From assembly GCA_028286685.1 (NCBI GenBank), contig JAQBRA010000006.1, positions 1,993 through 65,992 of the forward strand: a DNA stretch of 64,000 nt, written 5' to 3'. Below, one piece after another: positions 3,055-59,018 of this stretch. Source of the DNA: Candidatus Adlerbacteria bacterium. GTDB lineage: Bacteria > Patescibacteriota > Minisyncoccia > Phycocordibacterales > SBAW01. The notes under the pieces were generated by a model. The model was not told the origin of the DNA. It worked only from the letters and a program-made list of their open reading frames with translations, and did not search any database. Numbering within the stretch: position 1 is the first letter of the stretch; each line of letters opens with the position of its first letter. A program made the translations under genes and the position numbers.

Positions 3055-4611
3055 ATGAAATCAGCATTATTCACTGCTCACAAAAAAGCAGCCATTTCCT
3101 TGTTTTTGGCCGCCGCGAGCGCAGCGATTCTTCTTGTGGCTCTTCCGGCGCTCGCCGACAGCTCGGCAAATAGCAACTTCGAAAACCCGCCCTACGTGCC
3201 GGGGAATATAAACGGCCAGGACGGCTGGAGCAAAACAGGCGCGTACGATGCTGCGGTCACCAGTTCCTTTGGCGTGCCCGACTTCGGCAACCAGAGCCTG
3301 CGCATCTCAAACGCGGTTACCTCAAGCTCGTTCGCTGACCAGACCTTCGCCAAGCCTACTGCAGACGGCGCGGGCGAAGCCGACTCGACCTCGGGCGGAT
3401 TCGCAACCGGTACTCTGGCAAGCCACTTCCAGGCAGAGTTTGACCTCAGATCAGTGCAGCTCATGCAGCAGCCGGGACTCTCTATATCCGTTTCCCCCGA
3501 CCGGGGCGACGGCTCGCGCATGAGCTATCTTAGATTCGAGGACCAAGCCGACGGCATCCACGTGTTCTTCAACGATGCGCAGGGCTCGAGCACCTCTGCC
3601 GACTTTGTCGAGACCGACATAGCGACACTCAGCCGCGCCACGACGCACACCATAGGGTTCTCCATGGACTTCGTAAACGGGCCCTCCAACGATGTAGTTG
3701 AAATATATATCGACGGGGCGCTCGCCCATACCGGCACGAGCTGGGAAAACTATTACCGCTTCGATCCGGAGTCAGCTGCAGAGCAAAGCCCCCGCATCGT
3801 AAAGACCCTGCTCTTTAGAGCGGCGGGCACTGCTGCGACCTCAACGCAGGGCTTGGGCTACCTTATCGACAACCTGGAGATGCTCGCCTCAGGCTCAGCC
3901 CAGGGCGGTGGGAATGGGGACGTAACGGTAACCATAAGCAAATATATTGACGGCACTATGGCAACCTCCGGCAGCGCGCAGTCCCTGGCCTTCCCCATGA
4001 ACGCGAGCTGGAACGCGCAGAACATCGGCTCAAGCTCGGGGAGCTTCACGCTCTCGCCGCAGGGCTCCAATAGCCCGAACGCATACCAGGCTATCACTGC
4101 GGACATGACCTCGGGCGCGTCGTATTCGGTCGCCGAGGACACGAGCGGCGCCAATGTCGCCCAGAACTGCAGCGCAGGCAAGCCTTACTCGCTCGTCGGC
4201 TACACCACAGGTACCAGCTCGGCTGCCGCAGCGGCTGCAACGCCCAGCCTCACGCCGCCCAGCTTCTCCAACCTGACCGGAGACCAGTATGTCATCGTAT
4301 GGAACCATGCCTGCACCGACACCGGCACTACGACGCCGCCAACCACCGGCAACCCTAACGGCGCCTCCGTCGACCAGAACGGCTCGACCGTGCGCGCGGG
4401 CGGGCACCTGGACTTCGTAGGACGCAACTTCGGCCACGAGCAGGACGTTGCCATCTCGCTTGGCGGCTCCGTGATACGCACGGTGCATGCCGACGGCGGA
4501 GGCAACTTCTCTACCGGCTCGATGACCGCGCCCGCAACGCCGGGCACGTACCAGTACGAGTTTAAGGACTCGGGACATACGGTCATCGCCACCATTACGG
4601 TAGTGCCATAA
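3055..4611 (+). CDS. secreted hypothetical protein (beta-rich lectin/Ig-like domains)
   Basis: ATG preceded by an AT-rich leader. Signal peptide (LFLAAASAAILLVALPALA), a long Ser/Thr/Gly/Asn-rich beta-type sequence, a Thr/Pro-rich linker (TTPPTTGNP) and no C-terminal anchor. Confidence 0.6.
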   Translation: MKSALFTAHKKAAISLFLAAASAAILLVALPALADSSANSNFENPPYVPGNINGQDGWSKTGAYDAAVTSSFGVPDFGNQSLRISNAVTSSSFADQTFAKPTADGAGEADSTSGGFATGTLASHFQAEFDLRSVQLMQQPGLSISVSPDRGDGSRMSYLRFEDQADGIHVFFNDAQGSSTSADFVETDIATLSRATTHTIGFSMDFVNGPSNDVVEIYIDGALAHTGTSWENYYRFDPESAAEQSPRIVKTLLFRAAGTAATSTQGLGYLIDNLEMLASGSAQGGGNGDVTVTISKYIDGTMATSGSAQSLAFPMNASWNAQNIGSSSGSFTLSPQGSNSPNAYQAITADMTSGASYSVAEDTSGANVAQNCSAGKPYSLVGYTTGTSSAAAAAATPSLTPPSFSNLTGDQYVIVWNHACTDTGTTTPPTTGNPNGASVDQNGSTVRAGGHLDFVGRNFGHEQDVAISLGGSVIRTVHADGGGNFSTGSMTAPATPGTYQYEFKDSGHTVIATITVVP

Positions 4612-7337: not shown

Positions 7338-7937
7338 CTAGCGCAGCTCCGCATACACCACCAGCCGGCGGTCGTATTCTTTCTTATCCTTGATCCATGC
7401 CCCGTCGCAGGTAACCAGGTGCAGGTATGCGCCGCCTTTCTTATTAAACAGCTCATCAAGCGGGACCTCGGCCGCCGCATAGGACTCAACGCGTACCACT
7501 ACGAACCTAAGCGGCGTCGACGATGCCGTATCTACGTATATTTCATCCCCCGGCGCAAGATCGCCCAGATGCTTGAAGACGCCGTCAAGCGCCAATGCGT
7601 TGTCGACATGGCCGTCCATAACCGCGCTGCCCTCAAATCCGGGCACGGTGCCGTACTTGTACCAGCCGGCATCGGTAAAGTTGCCGGGCGTTGCCATATT
7701 GCCCGCTTCATTAATGCCCACCTGCTTTACGTGCGCATCAATACCGAGCGCGGGTATGCGCAGGCGCTCGGGCAAGTCGCCAGGTTCTGCCTGGCGTGCG
7801 GGCGCTGCGGCTGCCAGGGTGCTGGAAGCCATTTCTATATCAGGCGCATACCATACCGCACGCGCAAGCGTGGTAGCGAATACCACGCTTGCGGCTGCGG
7901 TTATGAGAGCGACGATAAGCCGCGGGCTTACGCGCAT
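7338..7937 (-). CDS. sortase family transpeptidase
   Basis: N-terminal TM anchor, catalytic His context (MDGHVD), the TLxTC-type active-site motif LHLVTCDG and a downstream Arg (RRLVV). Confidence 0.8.
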   Translation of the reverse strand: MRVSPRLIVALITAAASVVFATTLARAVWYAPDIEMASSTLAAAAPARQAEPGDLPERLRIPALGIDAHVKQVGINEAGNMATPGNFTDAGWYKYGTVPGFEGSAVMDGHVDNALALDGVFKHLGDLAPGDEIYVDTASSTPLRFVVVRVESYAAAEVPLDELFNKKGGAYLHLVTCDGAWIKDKKEYDRRLVVYAELR

Positions 7938-7943
7938 GCCAGT

Positions 7944-8192
7944 TTAGGCTTCCTTGCGGGTACGGGCCAAGTACAGGCCGCCGCCGACCAGAACTGCGGC
8001 TGACAAGCCCAAGACGGCTATCGTAGCTGCAGCTTCGCCGCCCTGCCCGGTGGACGGTACGCCCGGAGTGGCCTGAGTAGTAGCATCGGTGGTGGTCTGC
8101 GCGTAGGTCAGCGGCGCCGCAAGCGCCAAAAGCGTTCCCACCATAAGCCCTACTGCGCCGCCCGCTATCCGCTTCGTTAAGGCTAGAGTCAT
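7944..8192 (-). CDS. 82-aa secreted peptide with C-terminal sortase-type sorting signal (VPSTG + TM + RTRKEA)
   Basis: Signal peptide MTLALTKRIAGGAVGLMVGTLLALAAPLTYA, a roughly 17-aa Thr-rich mature segment, VPSTG, a hydrophobic stretch IAVLGLSAAVLVGGGLYLA and a basic tail RTRKEA. The gene ends 7 nt upstream of the sortase start on the same strand. Confidence 0.5.
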   Translation of the reverse strand: MTLALTKRIAGGAVGLMVGTLLALAAPLTYAQTTTDATTQATPGVPSTGQGGEAAATIAVLGLSAAVLVGGGLYLARTRKEA

Positions 8193-14356: not shown

Positions 14357-15877
14357 ATGAACTCATCACTTATCAGCGCAGACACTGTTTATAAAAAGAC
14401 GCTGGCAGCTTTTACGATCGCAGGCATGCTCCTGGCGTCGACTCCGGTCATGGCCGACAGCTCGATAACTGTCTCGCTCTCCTCTCCTGCATCGCAGGAG
14501 ATATCGGGAGATTTTGACATTACGGCCACCTTCTCGGCCGACGTGGTCGACTTCGACGCGAGCGACGTGCACCCTACCCTGGGGCAGATAAAGAACTTCC
14601 AGGCAATGAGCTCGAGTACGTACACCTTTACGTTCGACCCGGACGACTTGCAGTCGCCACAGGAAGTGCACGTCGATATCAGCGGCGATCGGGTGCACGA
14701 CCAAAACGGCAACACCAACCAGGCGTCCGCACAGCTCTCGCGCATGTTTATTCCGGGCGGTACCTCTACCTCGACCGGCACCACGACCGACAATGGAGGC
14801 GGCACGGGTACCACCACTCCTCCAGGCGGCACCGGGACTACCACGCCCCCGGGCGACACGGGCACTACCACCCCTCCTAACAATGGAACAAGCACTCTTC
14901 CCACAAACGGAGGAGGCAGCGCTTCCTCGACCATAGCAATAGAGATCACCAGCGGTCCCCAAGAGGGCGAGCTGGTCCACGCTACCAGCGCCATCTTTGC
15001 CTTTACCTCGACCGCCTCGACCACCGAGTGCAAGTTTGGCGACTTGGGCGGCTTCCAGAACTGCGACAGCCTGACGGCAGGCCCATACGGTCTCTACGAG
15101 GGGACGGACGTGTTCCAGATCCGCGGCACCAACCTGGACGGCGCCTCGAGCACCGTCACGCGCACCTTCATGGTCGACTTCCCGCCGGTGCTGACGCTCG
15201 GCTCTATCGCCACCTCTAGCGATGACAAGCCCGCCAGTATCACCTTCGGCTCCTCCGAGGCCGGCACTACGACGGTTGCCGGCGGCTGCTCTACGGCCTC
15301 CACCACCGTTGCAGTAGGTACCAGCACCATCGAGCTCGTCCCGACAGCTGAGCCCGGCACCCATACCTGCACGCTTACCGTAACCGACGCTTCGGGCGGC
15401 GTAAGCAACACGCTCACCATCCTGCCGGAGTTCACTATTGCAGCACCTGCATCAAACAATGAGGACGAGGAGGAGGGCCGCCGCTCTTCCGGCGGCAGCT
15501 TCCGCCGCGCTATTCCGGTAGTAGTAGTTGAGGGAGACTCGGGCTCCTCTGAACCTCTCTCCGACTTCCCTACCGTCATCACCGACACCTCTGGCGGCGT
15601 AGGCGGCGAGGGTGACAACACTTCCGGCTTCCCGGGCGCCGGGCCCGTAGTTGTGGGCGGCTCCGCGCTTGCCCCGGGCGAGGTCCTGGGCGAGGAAGTC
15701 GAGCCTGCTACGACCACCGGCACTACAGTAACCGGTACTATCGGCGCAGGCGCCGCTGCAGCAGGCAGCGCAGCCGTGGTCCCGCCGTGGGCCTGGTTTC
15801 TCCTGGCGCTCATACTCTTGGCAGCCTTGCTCTATTGGGCATACCGCCGGAGCGTAGCCTACGAGACCACTCGATAA
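14357..15877 (+). CDS. cell-surface protein: signal peptide, Ig-like beta domains, Thr/Pro/Gly repeats, C-terminal TM anchor
   Basis: Signal peptide (AAFTIAGMLLASTPVMA), repeated GTGTTTPP units, and a C-terminal hydrophobic helix plus basic tail (VVPPWAWFLLALILLAALLYWAYRRSVAYETTR). No LPxTG motif. Confidence 0.6.
   Translation: MNSSLISADTVYKKTLAAFTIAGMLLASTPVMADSSITVSLSSPASQEISGDFDITATFSADVVDFDASDVHPTLGQIKNFQAMSSSTYTFTFDPDDLQSPQEVHVDISGDRVHDQNGNTNQASAQLSRMFIPGGTSTSTGTTTDNGGGTGTTTPPGGTGTTTPPGDTGTTTPPNNGTSTLPTNGGGSASSTIAIEITSGPQEGELVHATSAIFAFTSTASTTECKFGDLGGFQNCDSLTAGPYGLYEGTDVFQIRGTNLDGASSTVTRTFMVDFPPVLTLGSIATSSDDKPASITFGSSEAGTTTVAGGCSTASTTVAVGTSTIELVPTAEPGTHTCTLTVTDASGGVSNTLTILPEFTIAAPASNNEDEEEGRRSSGGSFRRAIPVVVVEGDSGSSEPLSDFPTVITDTSGGVGGEGDNTSGFPGAGPVVVGGSALAPGEVLGEEVEPATTTGTTVTGTIGAGAAAAGSAAVVPPWAWFLLALILLAALLYWAYRRSVAYETTR
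14795..14880. repeat. in-frame 27-bp tandem repeat (x3, imperfect) encoding GTGTTTPPG units
   Basis: ggcggcacgggtaccaccactcctcca / ggcggcaccgggactaccacgcccccg / ggcgacacgggcactaccacccctcct. Confidence 0.6.
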
Positions 15878-32353: not shown

Positions 32354-39205
<6,852 letters not shown>

Positions 39206-53046: not shown

Positions 53047-53215
53047 TTGGAAGTTGCCTTGGCTACCACCCAGGGTCGTCCCGAGCCGCAAGGCCTAATC
53101 CGACGCAACAAAGTGCCCCGCCGGAATGGCGAGGGAAACTAGGTGGAACCGCGGTCCAAGATCGTCCTAGTGAGTGCACGAATGTCGTGCCTTCACTAGG
53201 GCGTTTTTTATTTTA
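53047..53215 (+). promoter_or_regulatory. T-box riboswitch leader of thrS (specifier ACC-A; antiterminator T-box; intrinsic terminator)
   Basis: The T-box consensus-like AAACUAGGUGGAACCGCGG (about 53137-53154) lies just before the terminator hairpin cctagtga...tcactagg-gcg-TTTTTTATTTT (53165-53214). A candidate specifier GCUACCACCC holds the Thr codon ACC followed by A. The 5' boundary is uncertain; the leader may begin at the 52717 TSS. Confidence 0.55.
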
Positions 53216-53233
53216 CAAACCAATATCATTACC

Positions 53234-54442
53234 ATGGAAGAACGAGACCATCGCGTCATAGGAAAAGAGCTTGACCTGTTTACCTTCTCGGACCTCGTGG
53301 GCCCCGGGCTCCCTTTATGGACCCCCAAGGGCACCACGTTCCGGGGCGAGATAGACAAATTTATCTGGGAGATGCGCGAAGCCCGCGGCTACGAGAAGGT
53401 CACTATCCCCCACATCACTAAGCGCGATCTGTACGAGACTTCCGGCCACTGGGAGAAGTTTGCCGAGGACCTCTTTAAGGTGACATCGCGCGAGGGCCGC
53501 GAGTACGCGATGAAGCCCATGAACTGCCCGCACCATACGCAGATTTTCGACCGCAAGCCGCACAGCTACCGCGATATGCCCCAGCGCTACGCCGAGACCA
53601 CCATGGTCTACCGCGACGAGCAGTCGGGCGAGCTGGGCGGGCTTACCCGCGTGCTTTCCATTACCCAGGACGACGCGCACGTATTCTGCCGCACCACGCA
53701 GGTGCGCGAGGAGTTCCTGAAAATTTGGGACATCGTCGACACATTCTACAAGCAGTTCGGCTTTACGCTGCGCGTGCGCCTCTCCTTCCGCGACCCAGCA
53801 GCGCCCGAGAAGTACCTGGGCACGCCCGAAATCTGGGACCGGGCCGAAGGCGAGCTGCGCTCGATTGCGCAAGAGCGCGGCGCCGACACCATTGAAGGCC
53901 CGGGCGAGGCGGCGCTCTACGGCCCCAAGCTCGACTTTATGGCCGCCAATGCGGCAGGCCGCGAGTGGCAGGTGGCAACGATCCAGCTCGACCTGAATAT
54001 CCCTGAGCGCTTTGATCTGACCTGCACCAACGAGAAGGGCGAGAAGGAGCGCATTGTCATGATCCATGCGGCTATTGCCGGCTCTTTGGAGCGCTGCGCG
54101 GCCATACTTATCGAGCACTATGGAGGTGCCTTCCCTACCTGGCTTTCCCCGGTGCAGGCAAAGATACTGCCTATCGGAGAGACCCATGCCGCCTTTGCAC
54201 AAGAAACGCTTGAGCGGCTCAAGGAGGCGGGCATACGCGCCGAGATAGACCAGAGCGGCGAGAGCCTGGGCAAGAAGATCCGCGAAGCGAAGACTCAGAA
54301 GGTTCCCTATCTCCTGATTATCGGCGACGCGGAGGTTGCCGCCGGCACCGCGACGCTCGAGGGCCGCGAGGGCAAGATCGGCGCGCTCCCGGTCGCTGAA
54401 ATAGCCGCCAAGCTTGCTGAAGAGATAAAGAGCCGCGCATAG
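53234..54442 (+). CDS. thrS: threonyl-tRNA synthetase, catalytic + anticodon-binding domains only (no N-terminal TGS/editing domains)
   Basis: Starts at MEERDHRVIGKELDLFTF..., which aligns to the start of the class II catalytic core of ThrRS (E. coli residue about 242). Motifs 2 and 3 are present with a C-terminal anticodon-binding domain; 402 aa. Confidence 0.85.
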   Translation: MEERDHRVIGKELDLFTFSDLVGPGLPLWTPKGTTFRGEIDKFIWEMREARGYEKVTIPHITKRDLYETSGHWEKFAEDLFKVTSREGREYAMKPMNCPHHTQIFDRKPHSYRDMPQRYAETTMVYRDEQSGELGGLTRVLSITQDDAHVFCRTTQVREEFLKIWDIVDTFYKQFGFTLRVRLSFRDPAAPEKYLGTPEIWDRAEGELRSIAQERGADTIEGPGEAALYGPKLDFMAANAAGREWQVATIQLDLNIPERFDLTCTNEKGEKERIVMIHAAIAGSLERCAAILIEHYGGAFPTWLSPVQAKILPIGETHAAFAQETLERLKEAGIRAEIDQSGESLGKKIREAKTQKVPYLLIIGDAEVAAGTATLEGREGKIGALPVAEIAAKLAEEIKSRA

Positions 54443-54526: not shown

Positions 54527-55489
54527 TTACTTAGAGCGCTTTGCGATCTGGGAAGCGATGAAGGGGTCAATGCCCTCTTCAACCAACGGAGCCGAGGCGG
54601 CTACGGAGTGAGTCTTGGGAGCGTGAGTAGTGTGTGCTGCGACCGAGCCGGAAGCCGTGCCGAAGAGGAAGCCGTTAAGGTAAGCGACTGCCTTGTTCTG
54701 AACGCGCTTGACGACGACGAGGTACGCTGCGCCGAGGCACCACAGTACGAGGAAGGTCCAGTAGAGAACCTCGCCCATCGGGCCCAAATCAAGACCGGTG
54801 TACGGAGCCTGGGAAAGGGTGATGTACGGAGTGGTGTTGTAAGCGATCGGGGCTACGTAGCAGTCGTTGTAGTTGTAACCCTGATTGTAGTCCTGGCCGT
54901 AGTTGTAATCGTACTCGTTGTAACCATAATCCTGCTGATTGTAGCCGTAGCCCTGGTTGTAGCTATTGCCGGACTGGCCGTAGCAATCCTGGTAACGCTC
55001 TTCCTGCTTCTTCTGGTTGTTGAAGGAGTTGCTGACCTTGACGCTATTGTCGACAATGCTGTTGTCTACATAGCTCTGGTTGCAGGAGTTGTTAACGCAG
55101 GTGTTGGTATTAACAGTCGTATTAGACTGAGCGGGAGTCTGGTAGCCCATTGCGTAACGGAATGCAGTGTTTGCTGCCGAGCCACCGAACGAAGGCATCG
55201 AGAATCCGCCACCAGTAGAACCGGAGCTGCCGTAGTCGCCGTATCCGCCAGATTCCTCGTAGGAGTCAGGGTAGTAGTTGGTCTCGGTGTCCGGGTAGTA
55301 GTTGGTCTCAGTGTCCGGGTAGTAGTTGGTGTAAGTGTCCGGGTAGTAGTTGTAACCGGAATCCATAGGGGCATCCCATACGCCGATATTATCCTCGCCA
55401 TCTGCCTTAACGAACGAGACCGGGAGGGCAAGCAACACAAGCGCTATGAGCGCGACGCTGCCGTTCCGAAGAGTGTTGAAAGTAGTCAT
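54527..55489 (-). CDS. Tyr/Asn/Gly-rich repeat protein with signal peptide and a late TM segment preceded by APYTG
   Basis: Signal peptide from the internal ATG (MTTFNTLRNGSVALIALVLLALPVSFVKA). Carries NYYPDTETNYYPDTETNYYPD repeats and a long Y/N/Q/G low-complexity region, then APYTGLDLGPMGE, a TM helix (VLYWTFLVLWCLGAAYLVVV), KRVQNK and a roughly 50-aa tail. Confidence 0.5.
   Translation of the reverse strand: MTTFNTLRNGSVALIALVLLALPVSFVKADGEDNIGVWDAPMDSGYNYYPDTYTNYYPDTETNYYPDTETNYYPDSYEESGGYGDYGSSGSTGGGFSMPSFGGSAANTAFRYAMGYQTPAQSNTTVNTNTCVNNSCNQSYVDNSIVDNSVKVSNSFNNQKKQEERYQDCYGQSGNSYNQGYGYNQQDYGYNEYDYNYGQDYNQGYNYNDCYVAPIAYNTTPYITLSQAPYTGLDLGPMGEVLYWTFLVLWCLGAAYLVVVKRVQNKAVAYLNGFLFGTASGSVAAHTTHAPKTHSVAASAPLVEEGIDPFIASQIAKRSK
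55268..55356. repeat. in-frame 21-bp tandem repeat (about 4 copies) encoding YYPDTET/N units
   Basis: gtgtccgggtagtagttggtctc repeated head-to-tail with point variants (minus strand coding). Confidence 0.6.
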
Positions 55490-55674
55490 ATACTTGTTTT
55501 GCTTGATAATTATAAACGCTTGCACCTTAACAGCTACTAATAATTCTGTCAATACCTCACGCTCCGGGCTCAACCGACTGGTTAAGCTCAGAGAATGAGG
55601 GATTACCAAGCTTTTCAGCTGAGTAATCCCGGGTGCAAAACGGCGCGTACGCCGCTTTGCTTTGCAACCAAACC

Positions 55675-56091
55675 TCAGACCGGACCACAGATCTTTGTAC
55701 CCCGCGGATCCGGCATCTTGGTTTCCCCGTTGCAACGATAGTATTCGTTCATCGGAGCGCCGGCCGGGCGGGTGACAATTTCCTTAGGCTCGCCTTTGGG
55801 CCGCTTCGCCTCGGTGCCCGCAGGTGCCGACGGCGGAACTTGGGATTTCGCCTCGTACTTTCTGCAACTGTCGACTACCTGGTCCCATTTCTGGGACGGC
55901 AAGCTGTCGAAGTAAGAGACGATCGTCTCTTTCTTCTCCGCTCCCGTGTTGATCATATGCTTGATCTTCTGGGCGCGGTATTTGCAGAGAGTCATCACGG
56001 TTTCGAACCGCGACGGGGCTTTGGTTTGAGCATAAGCGGGAGCGGACAGGGCCGCAAACGCTACTGCCAGAATGATAAGGTACTTGTGCAT
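55675..56091 (-). CDS. small secreted hypothetical protein
   Basis: Signal peptide MHKYLIILAVAFAALSAPAYA; 138 aa with a Cys pair near the C-terminus. Confidence 0.4.
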   Translation of the reverse strand: MHKYLIILAVAFAALSAPAYAQTKAPSRFETVMTLCKYRAQKIKHMINTGAEKKETIVSYFDSLPSQKWDQVVDSCRKYEAKSQVPPSAPAGTEAKRPKGEPKEIVTRPAGAPMNEYYRCNGETKMPDPRGTKICGPV

Positions 56092-56240
56092 CGAGTTCTC
56101 CTCTTGGATGCGTTCCTCTCTTTCACGAGAGTCAATGTGAAAACCTTCCGAGGAAGATTTTCAATAAGATTCTAGCGAAACGTGATGCGGGGGCTCGTCT
56201 CCTTTGACGAGCCCCGCGCACTAAAGCGTGGACTTAAAGA

Positions 56241-56576
56241 TCAATCGCACCAACCGGTGCCGGTGCCAGGACCGCCGCTGGGCTGCCCGTTGGCGAAACA
56301 CCGGAACTTGTGGGCGCTTGCCGGCGGATGCTCGGTGATAATCTTCTGCGGAGCGATCGGCTTGCCGACAACCCGACGGGGTGCCAACGGCCGGTGCTGA
56401 CGAGCGTTGGGCCGATGCGCGCCGTGAGAGCGCATCGAATTGATCCCCTGGGCGAATACCGGCATCAAGCTGGCCGCAGCGTTCGCGTTTGAAGTCGAAT
56501 TCACCAGAGTCTGGGCTTCAGCCGGCGTCATTGCGATGCAAGCCAATCCCATGCACAAGGCGAGCGCTTTGATCAT
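56241..56576 (-). CDS. small secreted hypothetical protein
   Basis: Start at the internal ATG MIKALALCMGLACIAMTPAEA (signal peptide); Pro/Ala/His-rich with a Cys pair near the C-terminus. Confidence 0.35.
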   Translation of the reverse strand: MIKALALCMGLACIAMTPAEAQTLVNSTSNANAAASLMPVFAQGINSMRSHGAHRPNARQHRPLAPRRVVGKPIAPQKIITEHPPASAHKFRCFANGQPSGGPGTGTGWCD

Positions 56577-56734
56577 GTCATCCTCTTCTTCGGTTGTGGG
56601 CGGTTCCTCTTCTTCCAAGAGGCCGCGTACTGCTGCACTGGGATTAGTATATACCATCTCTTCCCTTTTGTCAAGGGGGTTGACGGTATCCTGCTTTTTA
56701 GGCTCTGGTTGAGCCGTATTCTCCCGGCCGACCC

Positions 56735-57244
56735 TTAGGCGGCCGGGTGTCTCGGAAAATTTGCCTTGAGAGCAACCACCTCCCCTTCCAGAGAGGCGAA
56801 TTTGCCTTCCAAGACCTTAAGCATCGACAAGGGAACTTTTTCCTCAAGCTTCTTGTCGAGAGCCTTCAGCGCATCTTCGAATTTTTTAGAATCAGACTGA
56901 GGACGATCCTCGATAGCCTTAATCTGTCTGGTATTCACTTCGATCCTCTTGAAAAGATCGTTGACCTTATTCCGGGTTTCGTTCTCGCGCCTGACAATCT
57001 CATCGAGCGCGGACTTAAGTCCGTTATAGGTTGCACTTGCCCACATCTCTTCATTGTCGACAATGAACCGTGAAGCCATGACCGCAGCCATTTTGGGACT
57101 ACTGAACGTGCAGTACAGTATGACCCCCGACAAGGCGAGAAAAAACACGATAGCCGTGACAAGGAAGATTTTCCATCCCCTCTCCCAGCTACGATACTTA
57201 AACTTGACCTTGTCCCAGAATTCCGAAAGAGCTTCGGTTCTCAT
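56735..57244 (-). CDS. membrane-anchored coiled-coil protein (hypothetical)
   Basis: One TM helix (IFLVTAIVFFLALSGVILY) followed by heptad-like charged repeats. Confidence 0.4.
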   Translation of the reverse strand: MRTEALSEFWDKVKFKYRSWERGWKIFLVTAIVFFLALSGVILYCTFSSPKMAAVMASRFIVDNEEMWASATYNGLKSALDEIVRRENETRNKVNDLFKRIEVNTRQIKAIEDRPQSDSKKFEDALKALDKKLEEKVPLSMLKVLEGKFASLEGEVVALKANFPRHPAA

Positions 57245-57404
57245 GTTCTTCTCCTGCTACTGTTACCCTTGCGGGCATGTGAATGATCTTCATCTCTGCG
57301 GCTTTGTTCCGTAGAGTCATCGGCACTCCCCTCAGGAAGCAACAATGACCCCGCACAACTGCATGGCGGGAGTATGAACTACTCAGCTGAATTTCCCCTG
57401 AAGC

Positions 57405-57992
57405 TTACCGGGTGTAGGCCCCCTCAAAGTTTGCCGTTACGACGTAGCGGTCGGATTTGCTCCCGAAGTTGTCGCAAGTAACCAGACTCAGGTATTTGCC
57501 ATCTGCCGGGAGTTCTACCACATCTTCCTCTGCATTAGCAAGCCTGACCCCGACTACTTTGTAGCGATATTCGATGCCGGCCGAGTACACGCTTATAACC
57601 TGTCCGGTCTTTAGTTTCTCTATCCCGTTAAAAGTTTTATAGGCCTGATTGTTCACTATCGGCAAATGCGACGAGTGGCCGAAGATGGCGACGGTGCCGT
57701 CTTGGCCGAGCAGGGCCGAGGTGGGCCAGCGCATGGCGGCCTTATCCACAGCGGCGTTAAGCGTATCAAGGTCAGTTGATTGCGGGTTGAGCACCTCGGA
57801 ATCAAGCCCGATATCGAGCGCCACGACGCGCACCGGCAGCTCGTGCGTATCGGCGGGTATCTCCTCTGGGACAGGAACAGCCGCCTGAGTCTCGCCGCCG
57901 CGCGGCTCGGGCAAGGCGTCTACCATCGCCAAAAAGACGTAGGTCAGGCCGAACAGGAACATGAATGTAAATGCGAAAGAAAATGCGCGCAT
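57405..57992 (-). CDS. sortase family transpeptidase (second copy)
   Basis: N-terminal TM anchor, His in the IAIFGHSS context, active-site LSLVTCDN (TLxTC) and a downstream Arg (DRYVV). Confidence 0.8.
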   Translation of the reverse strand: MRAFSFAFTFMFLFGLTYVFLAMVDALPEPRGGETQAAVPVPEEIPADTHELPVRVVALDIGLDSEVLNPQSTDLDTLNAAVDKAAMRWPTSALLGQDGTVAIFGHSSHLPIVNNQAYKTFNGIEKLKTGQVISVYSAGIEYRYKVVGVRLANAEEDVVELPADGKYLSLVTCDNFGSKSDRYVVTANFEGAYTR

Positions 57993-58052
57993 AGGGTTTA
58001 TACGGTTATACCATTTTTATAGACTATTGACAATAGCCGCCCCCATGCTATA

Positions 58053-59018
58053 GTGCCCGCCATGGCAACCCACACAACGTTCCGCGAGAATTTCCTGCGC
58101 ATAATCGCAGTTATCGGCCTTATTGCGATCCTCCTTTTGGGCGCATGGGGCATTATCCAGCTCGCTTTTTATCTCCCGACCTTTTTTAGCAATTTTGGAA
58201 AAACCAAGGAGGCTATAACGGTTACCGTTCCTGCGCAGTCGACATCCGACAAGGCGTTTGCCCTCGGTTGGAAGCACGCTGGCAAGGACGATGCCGAGTA
58301 TTCGTACTCCGCTTCCTACTCGTGCGCCCAGGGCCTCCAGTTCGCTGCCCCGGTCCCGACCGGCGAGTATCAGCTGATACCCTGCAACACCCAGTTCAAT
58401 TATATAAACGCTACCTCGACCATGCCGGTTATCCCGGTCCTCGCCGCAGGCACCCAGAAGGCAACCACCACCCTTACCCTTACAGCTACCCGCCTTTCTG
58501 ACGGAGTAGTTTCTGTTAAGGGCACTGCCAACACGACCGTAAGCGCCAGCACTACCAGCACGACCGTTACCCCTACCACCAAGCCGGTTACCCCTAAACC
58601 TGCCGCTACCAAGCCATCCTCGAGCGCAGGAACTATCTACGTACCCTCCGGCCGCACTACCAACCTCTTCGGTTATCCGGACCTGGCCGTGCAGATTACC
58701 TCCGCGCCTCAGGCAGCAAATGTCGGCGGCCGCGTAACACTTAAGTTCTCGGTTACCAACGTAGGCACCAATGCCACCCCTGCCGGCTGGAGCTTTATCG
58801 CTCAGTTGCCGTACAACCCGGTGTACACCTACCCGTCCGGCCCGCAGCAGATGCTCTACCCGGGCGACATGATTATCTATACGCTCGGCTACGATGTTGT
58901 GCCCGCAGGCGGCCGCTACGGCACGGCACAGGCCTCCATACAGGTAGACCCGAACAACCAGATCCAAGAGACTATCGAGTACAACAACGCCGCAAACGTC
59001 ACCTACCAGGTCTACTAA
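58053..59018 (+). CDS. membrane-anchored surface protein with CARDB-like domain
   Basis: N-terminal TM helix, Thr-rich linkers, and a C-terminal domain DLAVQITSAPQAANVGGRVTLKFSVTNVGTNATPAGWSF resembling CARDB (cell-adhesion-related domain in bacteria). Confidence 0.5.
   Translation: MPAMATHTTFRENFLRIIAVIGLIAILLLGAWGIIQLAFYLPTFFSNFGKTKEAITVTVPAQSTSDKAFALGWKHAGKDDAEYSYSASYSCAQGLQFAAPVPTGEYQLIPCNTQFNYINATSTMPVIPVLAAGTQKATTTLTLTATRLSDGVVSVKGTANTTVSASTTSTTVTPTTKPVTPKPAATKPSSSAGTIYVPSGRTTNLFGYPDLAVQITSAPQAANVGGRVTLKFSVTNVGTNATPAGWSFIAQLPYNPVYTYPSGPQQMLYPGDMIIYTLGYDVVPAGGRYGTAQASIQVDPNNQIQETIEYNNAANVTYQVY

Follow-up and report, generated by a model that had tools for sequence, protein, structure and literature searches.

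Which protein, if any, does a sortase act on when it lies among genes for secreted and membrane proteins in a bacterium of the candidate phyla radiation (CPR)? The question is raised by six consecutive genes at positions 54,527 to 59,018 of a 64,000-nucleotide stretch of DNA (hereafter the window) from a metagenome-assembled genome of Candidatus Adlerbacteria. Bacteria of the CPR (Patescibacteria) are thought to be attached to other cells, and to our knowledge their surface machinery is almost entirely uncharacterised. An earlier reading, made without database searches (the sequence-only reading), held that all six genes encode exported or membrane proteins and that together they look like a surface-fibre or adhesion module. 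All six open reading frames (ORFs) were recovered at or near the positions given there, and each product is exported or membrane-bound. The answer that we favour, and regard as probable rather than settled, is that the sortase belongs to a lineage-specific dedicated sortase system of Paceibacteria (Parcubacteria, CPR), in which the product of the first gene would be the substrate.

A conserved core between gyrB and thrS

Three of the six genes make up this system. The first, at 54527..55489 on the minus strand, encodes a 320-aa protein with a signal peptide, a Tyr-rich disordered ectodomain and a conserved C-terminal module that contains the residues PYTG; we call it the PYTG-tail protein. It is 100% identical to the NCBI hypothetical protein JWL87_736. 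The sortase gene (57405..57992, minus strand) encodes 195 aa, with an N-terminal transmembrane anchor, a variable and unconserved linker and the catalytic domain. The third gene, at 58062..59018 on the plus strand and divergent from the sortase gene, encodes a 318-aa protein that is anchored in the membrane at its N-terminus and has two Ig-like domains; the C-terminal one is of the CARDB family.

Related loci were collected from both ends of this set. A scan seeded with the PYTG-tail protein and limited to one genome per species gave 58 loci. In the opposite direction, metagenome contigs were scanned with the sortase alignment as seed; this gave 483 matching stretches, and the best 80 were analysed. 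The gene order is gyrB, the CARDB gene on the opposite strand, the sortase gene, a variable segment of 1-3 kb, one or two PYTG genes, thrS and dnaE. The sortase was found in 51 of 51 genome loci with enough flanking sequence and the divergent CARDB gene in 48 of 48. Among the metagenome loci, a tail ORF was present in all 25 that had at least 4.5 kb downstream, and the CARDB gene in 44 of the 45 that had at least 1.5 kb upstream, the exception being a short, rearranged locus (L117). The weakest and oddest homologues of the tail (P0120, P0102 and P0101) likewise lie in the gyrB-thrS context. What is conserved, at a fixed site between gyrB and thrS, is a core made of the gene for the unclassified sortase, that for the CARDB protein and one or two for PYTG proteins. 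Conserved linkage to the sortase had been proposed as a check of the sequence-only reading; it held for the sortase, CARDB and PYTG genes and failed for the three genes between them, which vary from locus to locus. Separately, on a 1.7-kb contig (L141, 1-1726), the sortase gene directly follows gyrB with no CARDB gene between the two.

The same three genes could be neighbours only through a gene order frozen throughout the clade, without forming any functional unit. Housekeeping genes that are unrelated to surface display (pheT and gyrB on one side, thrS, dnaE and rnhB on the other) are also conserved neighbours throughout the clade, which lessens the weight of adjacency by itself as a sign of function. 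The interval itself, however, is far from static. The cassette of small genes turns over, the PYTG gene has been duplicated, and the sortase gene has shifted, so that it stands between two PYTG genes in six loci (L020, L026, L042, L044, L049 and L058) with intervening genes that differ by locus; yet the three core genes are always kept. The putative substrate, moreover, carries a sortase-type motif. We therefore consider it very unlikely that frozen order explains the locus.

The PYTG module and its neighbouring sortase

The conserved C-terminal module of the PYTG-tail protein covers about 100 aa, with the consensus PYVTLSxxPYTGLDLGPxGxxLYWxFLVLWCLxAAYLIVVKRVQNK...LNxFLFG...GIDPFIxSQIxR. Its putative recognition and cleavage motif for a sortase is the pentapeptide APYTG (54794..54808, minus strand; residues 228-232). 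PYTG is invariant in 120 of 120 homologues, and the residue before it is V in 83, A in 20, L in 7, T in 5, I in 4 and M in 1. A spacer of 9 residues separates the pentapeptide from a 19-aa transmembrane helix, LYWTFLVLWCLGAAYLVVV (54710..54766, minus strand; residues 242-260), in which Y243, W244, A255, Y256 and L257 are invariant. The helix is followed by a cytoplasmic tail of 60 aa (54530..54709, minus strand) made of KRVQNK, LNGFLFG, a variable spacer and a terminal GIDPFIASQIAKRSK helix, with D308, F310 and Q314 at least 90% conserved. The AlphaFold2 (AF2) model has a helix at residues 237-276, with a predicted local distance difference test score (pLDDT) of 80-89, and a short terminal helix at 309-318. 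Behind the PYTG motif lie 88 residues in the window protein and a median of 89 in the family. Mean conservation is 0.74 over residues 216-267 and 0.63 over the tail, compared to 0.26 over the ectodomain.

A profile of the tail was scored against 1.84 billion representative proteins and matched 845 at E<=1e-3, 102 of them at E<=1e-30. The best 150 of the 845 matches, proteins of 95-679 aa, all carry the module at their very C-terminal end. The N-terminal regions of the listed matches differ widely and have no Pfam matches or weak Ig-like ones. The best match of the tail profile among PDB sequences was ATP synthase b at E=0.4, which we judged to be noise.

An LPXTG-type cell wall sorting signal is about 30-40 aa in length. 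The window protein shares its order of parts: there is a C-terminal xPxTG pentapeptide (APYTG), a 19-aa helix begins 9 residues after it, and the basic cluster KRVQNK comes next. The chain does not end within a few residues of the basic cluster, as a classical signal would, and such an end is seen only in a second type of PYTG protein described below. The sequence-only reading had likened this region to a relaxed sorting signal whose cytoplasmic tail is unusually long, and the description is reasonable, as APYTG, the helix and KRVQNK are all conserved. The other elements it named in this protein, a signal peptide and NYYPDTET-type repeats, are present as well, and the tail that it put at about 50 aa measures 60 aa.

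The second type was met in a survey of 104 loci, 16 of which carry two PYTG genes. Type 1, to which the window protein belongs, combines Tyr richness with the long tail. Type 2 is absent from the window; it has a Cys-rich (8-48 Cys), Gly/Pro-rich ectodomain of up to about 690 aa. Type-2 proteins keep TLSxxPYTGLDLG, the helix and KRVQN, often miss the Cys of the helix, and end 10-25 residues past it, which is the length of a classical sorting signal. Thus two unrelated ectodomain types share one signal beside one sortase, which argues that PYTG is a sorting motif and not a structural quirk; this is the strongest argument that we have for it. The core of PYTG, helix and basic residues looks like a sortase sorting signal, to which the long cytoplasmic extension of type 1 looks like an add-on. 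Type-2 ORFs were the second PYTG ORFs in L020, L023, L029, L034, L035, L040-L044, L049, L058 and L059. One relative, P0102, has matches to cEGF-like repeats. In another locus (L048, 6735-7061) a tail-only ORF of 97 aa with PLHTG in place of PYTG directly follows the sortase gene.

The sequence-only reading had recognised a second sortase in the window by the motif LSLVTCDN. The assignment was confirmed by the Pfam sortase model PF04203, which matches residues 61-188, including YLSLVTCDN, with 63 bits against a cutoff of 26.6 (E=3e-17). H106 (in FGHSS), C173 (LVTCD) and R182 (DRYVV) are invariant in 27 orthologues, and so are F6, F10, F14 and F20 of the transmembrane anchor, where F6, F10 and F14 form one invariant Phe face. 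The orthologues are 54-87% identical, so that the enzyme is far more conserved than the substrate. None of the curated NCBIfam class models A-F and GN reaches its cutoff (140-166); the scores are 27.7 bits for class C, 27.6 for class E, 27.5 for SrtD, 26.1 for class D and 25.3 for GN (TIGR03784). The generic sortase model TIGR01076 gives 31.5 bits, under its cutoff of 39.35. By these scores the sortase falls outside every curated sortase class. In a PDB sequence search the closest entry was 4d70, SrtD of Clostridium perfringens (PMC4498605), at E=1.7e-6; 'Cake' designer proteins stood above it, and these were rejected as repeat artefacts with no significant single stretch, the true relatives beginning with 4d70. 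No similarity to the window's other sortase was detected by phmmer, and the two are independent systems. No other candidate substrate for the present enzyme was found in the loci examined.

The N-terminal part of the PYTG-tail protein is of a different nature from its module. The signal peptide, MTTFNTLRNGSVALIALVLLALPVSFVKA (55403..55489, minus strand; residues 1-29, ...SFVKA|DGE, as read from the translation), agrees with an AF2 helix at residues 3-21, and a hydrophobic N-terminus is kept across the alignment. The low-complexity ectodomain (54839..55402, minus strand; residues 30-217) is predicted to be disordered; AF2, run with the family alignment, gives pLDDT below 50 over almost all of residues 24-218. 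It consists of NYYPDT[YE]T repeats, a G/S stretch, a conserved Cys pair (NTNTCxNNSCN) and a Y/N/Q/G stretch. The repeat units are encoded by a 24-bp tandem repeat (55265..55352, minus strand) of 3.7 copies with 93% matches and a Tandem Repeats Finder score of 148; homologues have similar xYYPD repeats in varying copy number. The ectodomain aligns poorly, and C136 of the Cys pair is its sole invariant residue.

Homologues fall into about 120 clusters, which come without exception from CPR bacteria of the Paceibacteria type and nearly all have lengths of 260-400 aa. None of these clusters has a confident Pfam domain, the faint cEGF-type matches of P0102 being alone, and the window protein itself matched no family in Pfam and NCBIfam. 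The possibility raised earlier that the Y/N-rich ORF is a degenerate pseudogene was ruled out, for the protein is full-length, belongs to a family of no fewer than 120 clusters and has all family-invariant residues.

Two further claims had been made about this ectodomain. The first, an amyloid- or prion-like composition, needs revision. Tyr, Asn and Gly make up 16%, 14% and 11% of the ectodomain as against 3.4%, 2.8% and 8.2% in gyrB, dnaE and thrS of the same window, and Asn plus Gln reach 35% in its best 60-aa window. The family median of the latter value is 27% (range 15-42%), and N/Q richness is limited to the window protein's own orthologue group. What the family has in common is Tyr richness (median 14%, along with G/S/T/P) with low Lys plus Arg (median 1.1%), rather than prion-like N/Q richness. 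The second claim, a surface fibre, was not borne out, and a pilus reading was ruled out with it: the ectodomain is disordered over residues 24-218 and has no conserved Lys, and the class C model stays far under its cutoff. With almost no Lys or Arg, and a Cys as the sole invariant ectodomain residue, there is no pilin-type acceptor.

The CARDB partner and the fate of the PYTG protein

The membrane-anchored CARDB-like protein had also been noticed in the sequence-only reading, and PF07705 matches it above cutoff (27.7 bits against 22.7). It consists of a short cytoplasmic N-terminus, a transmembrane helix, an Ig-like domain, a T/P-rich linker and the C-terminal CARDB domain. The AF2 model (pLDDT 85.5) has a helix at residues 7-44, a beta domain at 51-161, a disordered stretch at 168-187 and a second beta domain at 190-317. 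The first beta domain holds a conserved Cys88-Cys108 pair. The second matches the CARDB structures 3idu and 2kl6 of PF1109 with target TM-scores of 0.79-0.84; besides CARDB, the fold search with this model returned only generic tandem Ig-like proteins (RbmA, integrin) and gave no functional lead. The transmembrane helix is the most conserved part, with G19, L20, A22, L24, L26, G27, A28, W29, G30, I31 and I32 invariant and a conservation of 0.80 against 0.49 in the ectodomain. The ectodomain has no invariant Lys; K270 is at least 90% conserved and is Met in the window protein. Many orthologues (P0288, P0341 and P0357 among them) carry a Y/G/N/Q/P-rich insertion inside the CARDB domain (alignment columns ~360-470) that is absent from the window protein and whose composition is like that of the substrate ectodomain.

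The start of the CARDB gene is most likely the ATG at 58062 and not the GTG at 58053 assumed before, because the NCBI product has 318 aa and a promoter-like site ends at 58054. This site, TTGACA-16-(TG)CTATAGT (58027..58054, plus strand), is a consensus match only and lies 7 nt before the ATG, which suggests that the CARDB mRNA is leaderless or nearly so. On the opposite strand, the start of the sortase gene lies at a distance of 69 nt, which leaves a compact divergent control region.

In the dedicated system that we favour, the signal peptide would direct the PYTG protein to export through the Sec pathway, and the C-terminal helix would keep it in the membrane, with KRVQNK on the cytoplasmic side. 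The adjacent membrane-anchored sortase would then recognise [V/A/L/I/T]-P-Y-T-G, 9 residues outside the helix, and cleave after Thr (PYT|G) by means of Cys173. The disordered, acidic, Tyr-rich and Lys/Arg-poor ectodomain would be moved to an amine acceptor, most likely a peptidoglycan precursor, and would end as a covalently bound coat or adhesive layer of low complexity. The CARDB protein may act as an intramembrane partner that presents the substrate or serves as a scaffold. The 50-aa cytoplasmic extension that ends in GIDPFIxSQI lies outside the minimal signal and probably has a second role, in retention, quality control or signalling. Because the substrate and the CARDB protein both have transmembrane helices that are far better conserved than their ectodomains, and the sortase anchor has its invariant Phe face, the data suggest that the three proteins meet as an intramembrane complex.

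Several points tell against this account, in addition to the synteny of the flanking genes. Cleavage and anchoring are deduced from signal anatomy and linkage, and the idea of an intramembrane complex from conservation alone. At its first position the motif usually has Val or Ala in place of Leu. The LPXTG-anchor models TIGR01167 and PF00746 did not match the 106-aa tail at E<=10 in searches of NCBIfam and Pfam. A strongly conserved helix and tail are, in addition, atypical for a signal that is discarded, and they fit an uncleaved membrane protein equally well. The PYTG protein might accordingly be a stable single-pass protein that binds the CARDB protein, and perhaps a cytoplasmic partner, as a scaffold of the envelope or of host contact; PYTG would then be structural, and the sortase would serve other substrates or trim a fraction of the molecules. 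Such a role would explain why helix and tail are so much better conserved than the ectodomain, why the helix of the CARDB protein is nearly invariant, why the tail closes with a predicted helix that is conserved (GIDPFIxSQI) and why the anchor hidden Markov models (HMMs) miss the module. It would leave unexplained why the P, T and G of a sortase pentapeptide, together with Tyr, should be the four residues kept in every one of 120 homologues, with the spacing from the helix that is canonical for such a motif. The type-2 paralogues keep PYTG, the helix and the basic residues and drop the long tail and often the Cys of the helix, so that what the two types share is the sortase-type signal and not the tail. 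No other candidate substrate was found in the loci either, and the only other sorting signal of the window adjoins a different, class-F-like sortase. On balance we consider an uncleaved complex unlikely.

The sortase might also process the PYTG protein without anchoring it to the wall, so that the product is released as a secreted Tyr-rich matrix or adhesive, or is ligated to the CARDB protein or to a cassette protein. The evidence for recognition is the same here as for wall anchoring, and the CARDB protein and variable secreted Cys proteins are always or often encoded alongside; the Y/G/N-rich insertions of some CARDB orthologues, which resemble the substrate, would fit too. Known sortases, however, prefer transpeptidation to hydrolysis, which speaks against release. 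As for ligation, the CARDB protein is an unlikely acceptor because its ectodomain has no invariant Lys, K270 being Met here; the substrate ectodomains are almost free of Lys, and the cassette proteins are not conserved. A product of this kind appears to us improbable, more so than an uncleaved complex.

A bolder version of the favoured system can be proposed with little confidence. The sortase may split a bitopic precursor into two functional products within the sortase/CARDB/PYTG-tail complex: a wall-linked, Tyr-rich disordered coat and an 88-aa membrane remnant that stays bound to the CARDB protein through its helix and GIDPFIxSQI end and reports or regulates surface assembly. If this doubtful proposal were true, a sorting signal would have evolved into a subunit. 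A functional remnant has a precedent in Streptococcus gordonii, where the C-peptide left after sortase A processing is sensed by a two-component system histidine kinase (PMC11326707), and this might be a reason for the conservation of helix and tail here. The S. gordonii peptide comes from an ordinary short signal, whereas the remnant here would be ~88 aa long with a conserved cytoplasmic motif, and the locus encodes no kinase.

Accessory genes, related systems and significance

Between the PYTG and sortase genes of the window lie three small genes, all on the minus strand. The first, cys1 (55675..56091), encodes a small secreted protein of 138 aa with a signal peptide and 4 Cys. The second, cys2 (56241..56576), encodes probably 111 aa with a signal peptide, a C-terminal Cys pair and the sequence FRCxxxGxPSGGPGTGTGWCD; its relatives have lipoprotein-type signals. 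The third (56735..57244) encodes a single-pass membrane protein of 169 aa whose one transmembrane helix precedes a charged C-terminal region that is helical and possibly a coiled coil. The cys1 family was found in 9 of the 58 genome loci and 11 of the 80 metagenome loci, and the cys2 family in 5 and 6, respectively. For the third protein, phmmer found no orthologue in the 58 genome loci beyond a near-identical contig (L001), and Pfam gave sub-threshold matches only. Other loci have different small secreted Cys proteins or coiled-coil proteins in the same position. These three genes are a variable accessory cassette outside the conserved machine, and a six-gene operon as the conserved unit was ruled out, as the three are missing from most related loci. 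The third protein had been described as a coiled-coil membrane protein. The coiled coil found weak support: heptad a/d enrichment was 0.58 against a shuffle mean of 0.44 (standard deviation 0.09), a value reached by 45 of 500 shuffles in what is a weak test.

A longer cys2 ORF begins with an ATG at 56657, and this codon lies inside a promoter-like site, TTGACA-17-TATACT (56646-56674, minus strand; 11/12 matches). The start of cys2 is for this reason most likely the ATG at 56576, which stands behind the Shine-Dalgarno-like AAGAGGA. The acidic extension of the longer ORF (MVYTNPS...EEEDD) is probably untranslated.

Elsewhere in the window, the class-F-like sortase mentioned above is encoded at 7338-7937 (minus strand); its score with NF033748 is 128 bits, short of the cutoff of 166. 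Directly upstream of it is an 82-aa mini-protein (7944-8192, minus strand) with a signal peptide, a Thr-rich linker, VPSTG, a transmembrane helix and RTRKEA. The mini-protein has weak matches to TIGR01167 and PF00746 and would be an odd substrate, having almost no N-terminal domain to display. Two large secreted proteins, one of 518 aa with no Pfam match (3055-4611, plus strand) and one of 506 aa with a Big_12 Ig-like domain (14357-15877, plus strand), were inspected for a PYTG or LPXTG-like C-terminus, and neither has one. The thrS gene of the window (53174-54442, plus strand) is a short form of 422 aa without the N-terminal editing region; in L009, L015, L017, L043 and L057, thrS ORFs of ~1.8-2.0 kb occupy the same position. 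A single ORF of 2283 aa at 32354-39205 (minus strand) has all RpoB domains (19-1047) followed by all RpoC domains (1066-2162) and is an apparent rpoB-rpoC fusion; no such fusion in CPR bacteria was found in the literature searched.

The system resembles classical LPXTG sorting, as by SrtA of Staphylococcus aureus, in its enzyme, which has the sortase fold, a His/Cys/Arg triad and an N-terminal anchor, and in its substrate, which combines a signal peptide, a C-terminal xPxTG, a spacer of few residues, a hydrophobic helix and basic residues. It differs in the motif, [V/A]PYTG with an invariant Tyr, whose flanks are conserved as well (PYxTLSxx before and LDLGP after it). The helix is strongly conserved, and ~50 further residues end in the conserved GIDPFIxSQI. 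The anchor HMMs are blind to the module, and the enzyme fits no class A-F or GN model. SrtB with IsdC (NPQTN) and the class GN 'marine' sortase (TIGR03784) are cases in which a dedicated sortase lies beside one or two cognate substrates with a non-canonical motif. The present locus is like these, with a specialised sortase beside its substrates and a second, more conventional sortase in the genome. TIGR03784, however, gives 25 bits against a cutoff of 158, the substrate is disordered and of low complexity instead of a folded NEAT or vWA domain, and there is an invariant third partner, the CARDB membrane protein. Sortase-assembled pili share the clustering of a sortase gene with its substrates, of which there are sometimes two per locus here; unlike them, the PYTG proteins have no folded Ig-like (CnaA/CnaB) pilin domains or conserved Lys acceptor, the Lys plus Arg content of their ectodomains is ~1%, and the class C model reaches 27.7 bits against a cutoff of 160.

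Short C-terminal sorting domains with dedicated enzymes are known from the PEP-CTERM/exosortase, PGF-CTERM/archaeosortase and GlyGly-CTERM/rhombosortase systems (PMC3237569, bioRxiv 10.1101/2023.06.07.544157). They likewise combine a modular C-terminal domain, made of motif, transmembrane helix and basic residues, with varied N-termini and a genomic tie to one enzyme; the present locus differs in having a true sortase as its enzyme and a domain roughly three times as long. A sortase family was reported to be enriched in the CPR by Méheust et al. (PMC6744442). In the literature searched, we found no earlier description of a PYTG-type sortase signal or of a cognate substrate for CPR sortases.

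The short peptide TLSxxPYTGLDLGP (for example TLSQAPYTGLDLGP) makes the sortase specificity of an uncultured organism testable in vitro, and a sortase specific for [V/A]PYTG could serve in orthogonal protein ligation. The C-terminal domain is defined by sequence, with 845 representative proteins, and could be made into an annotation model. A long conserved tail together with a near-invariant transmembrane helix in a partner protein would be new for sortase biology. For the Paceibacteria, the locus provides a concrete triad of enzyme, signal and partner that is invariant across a large clade.

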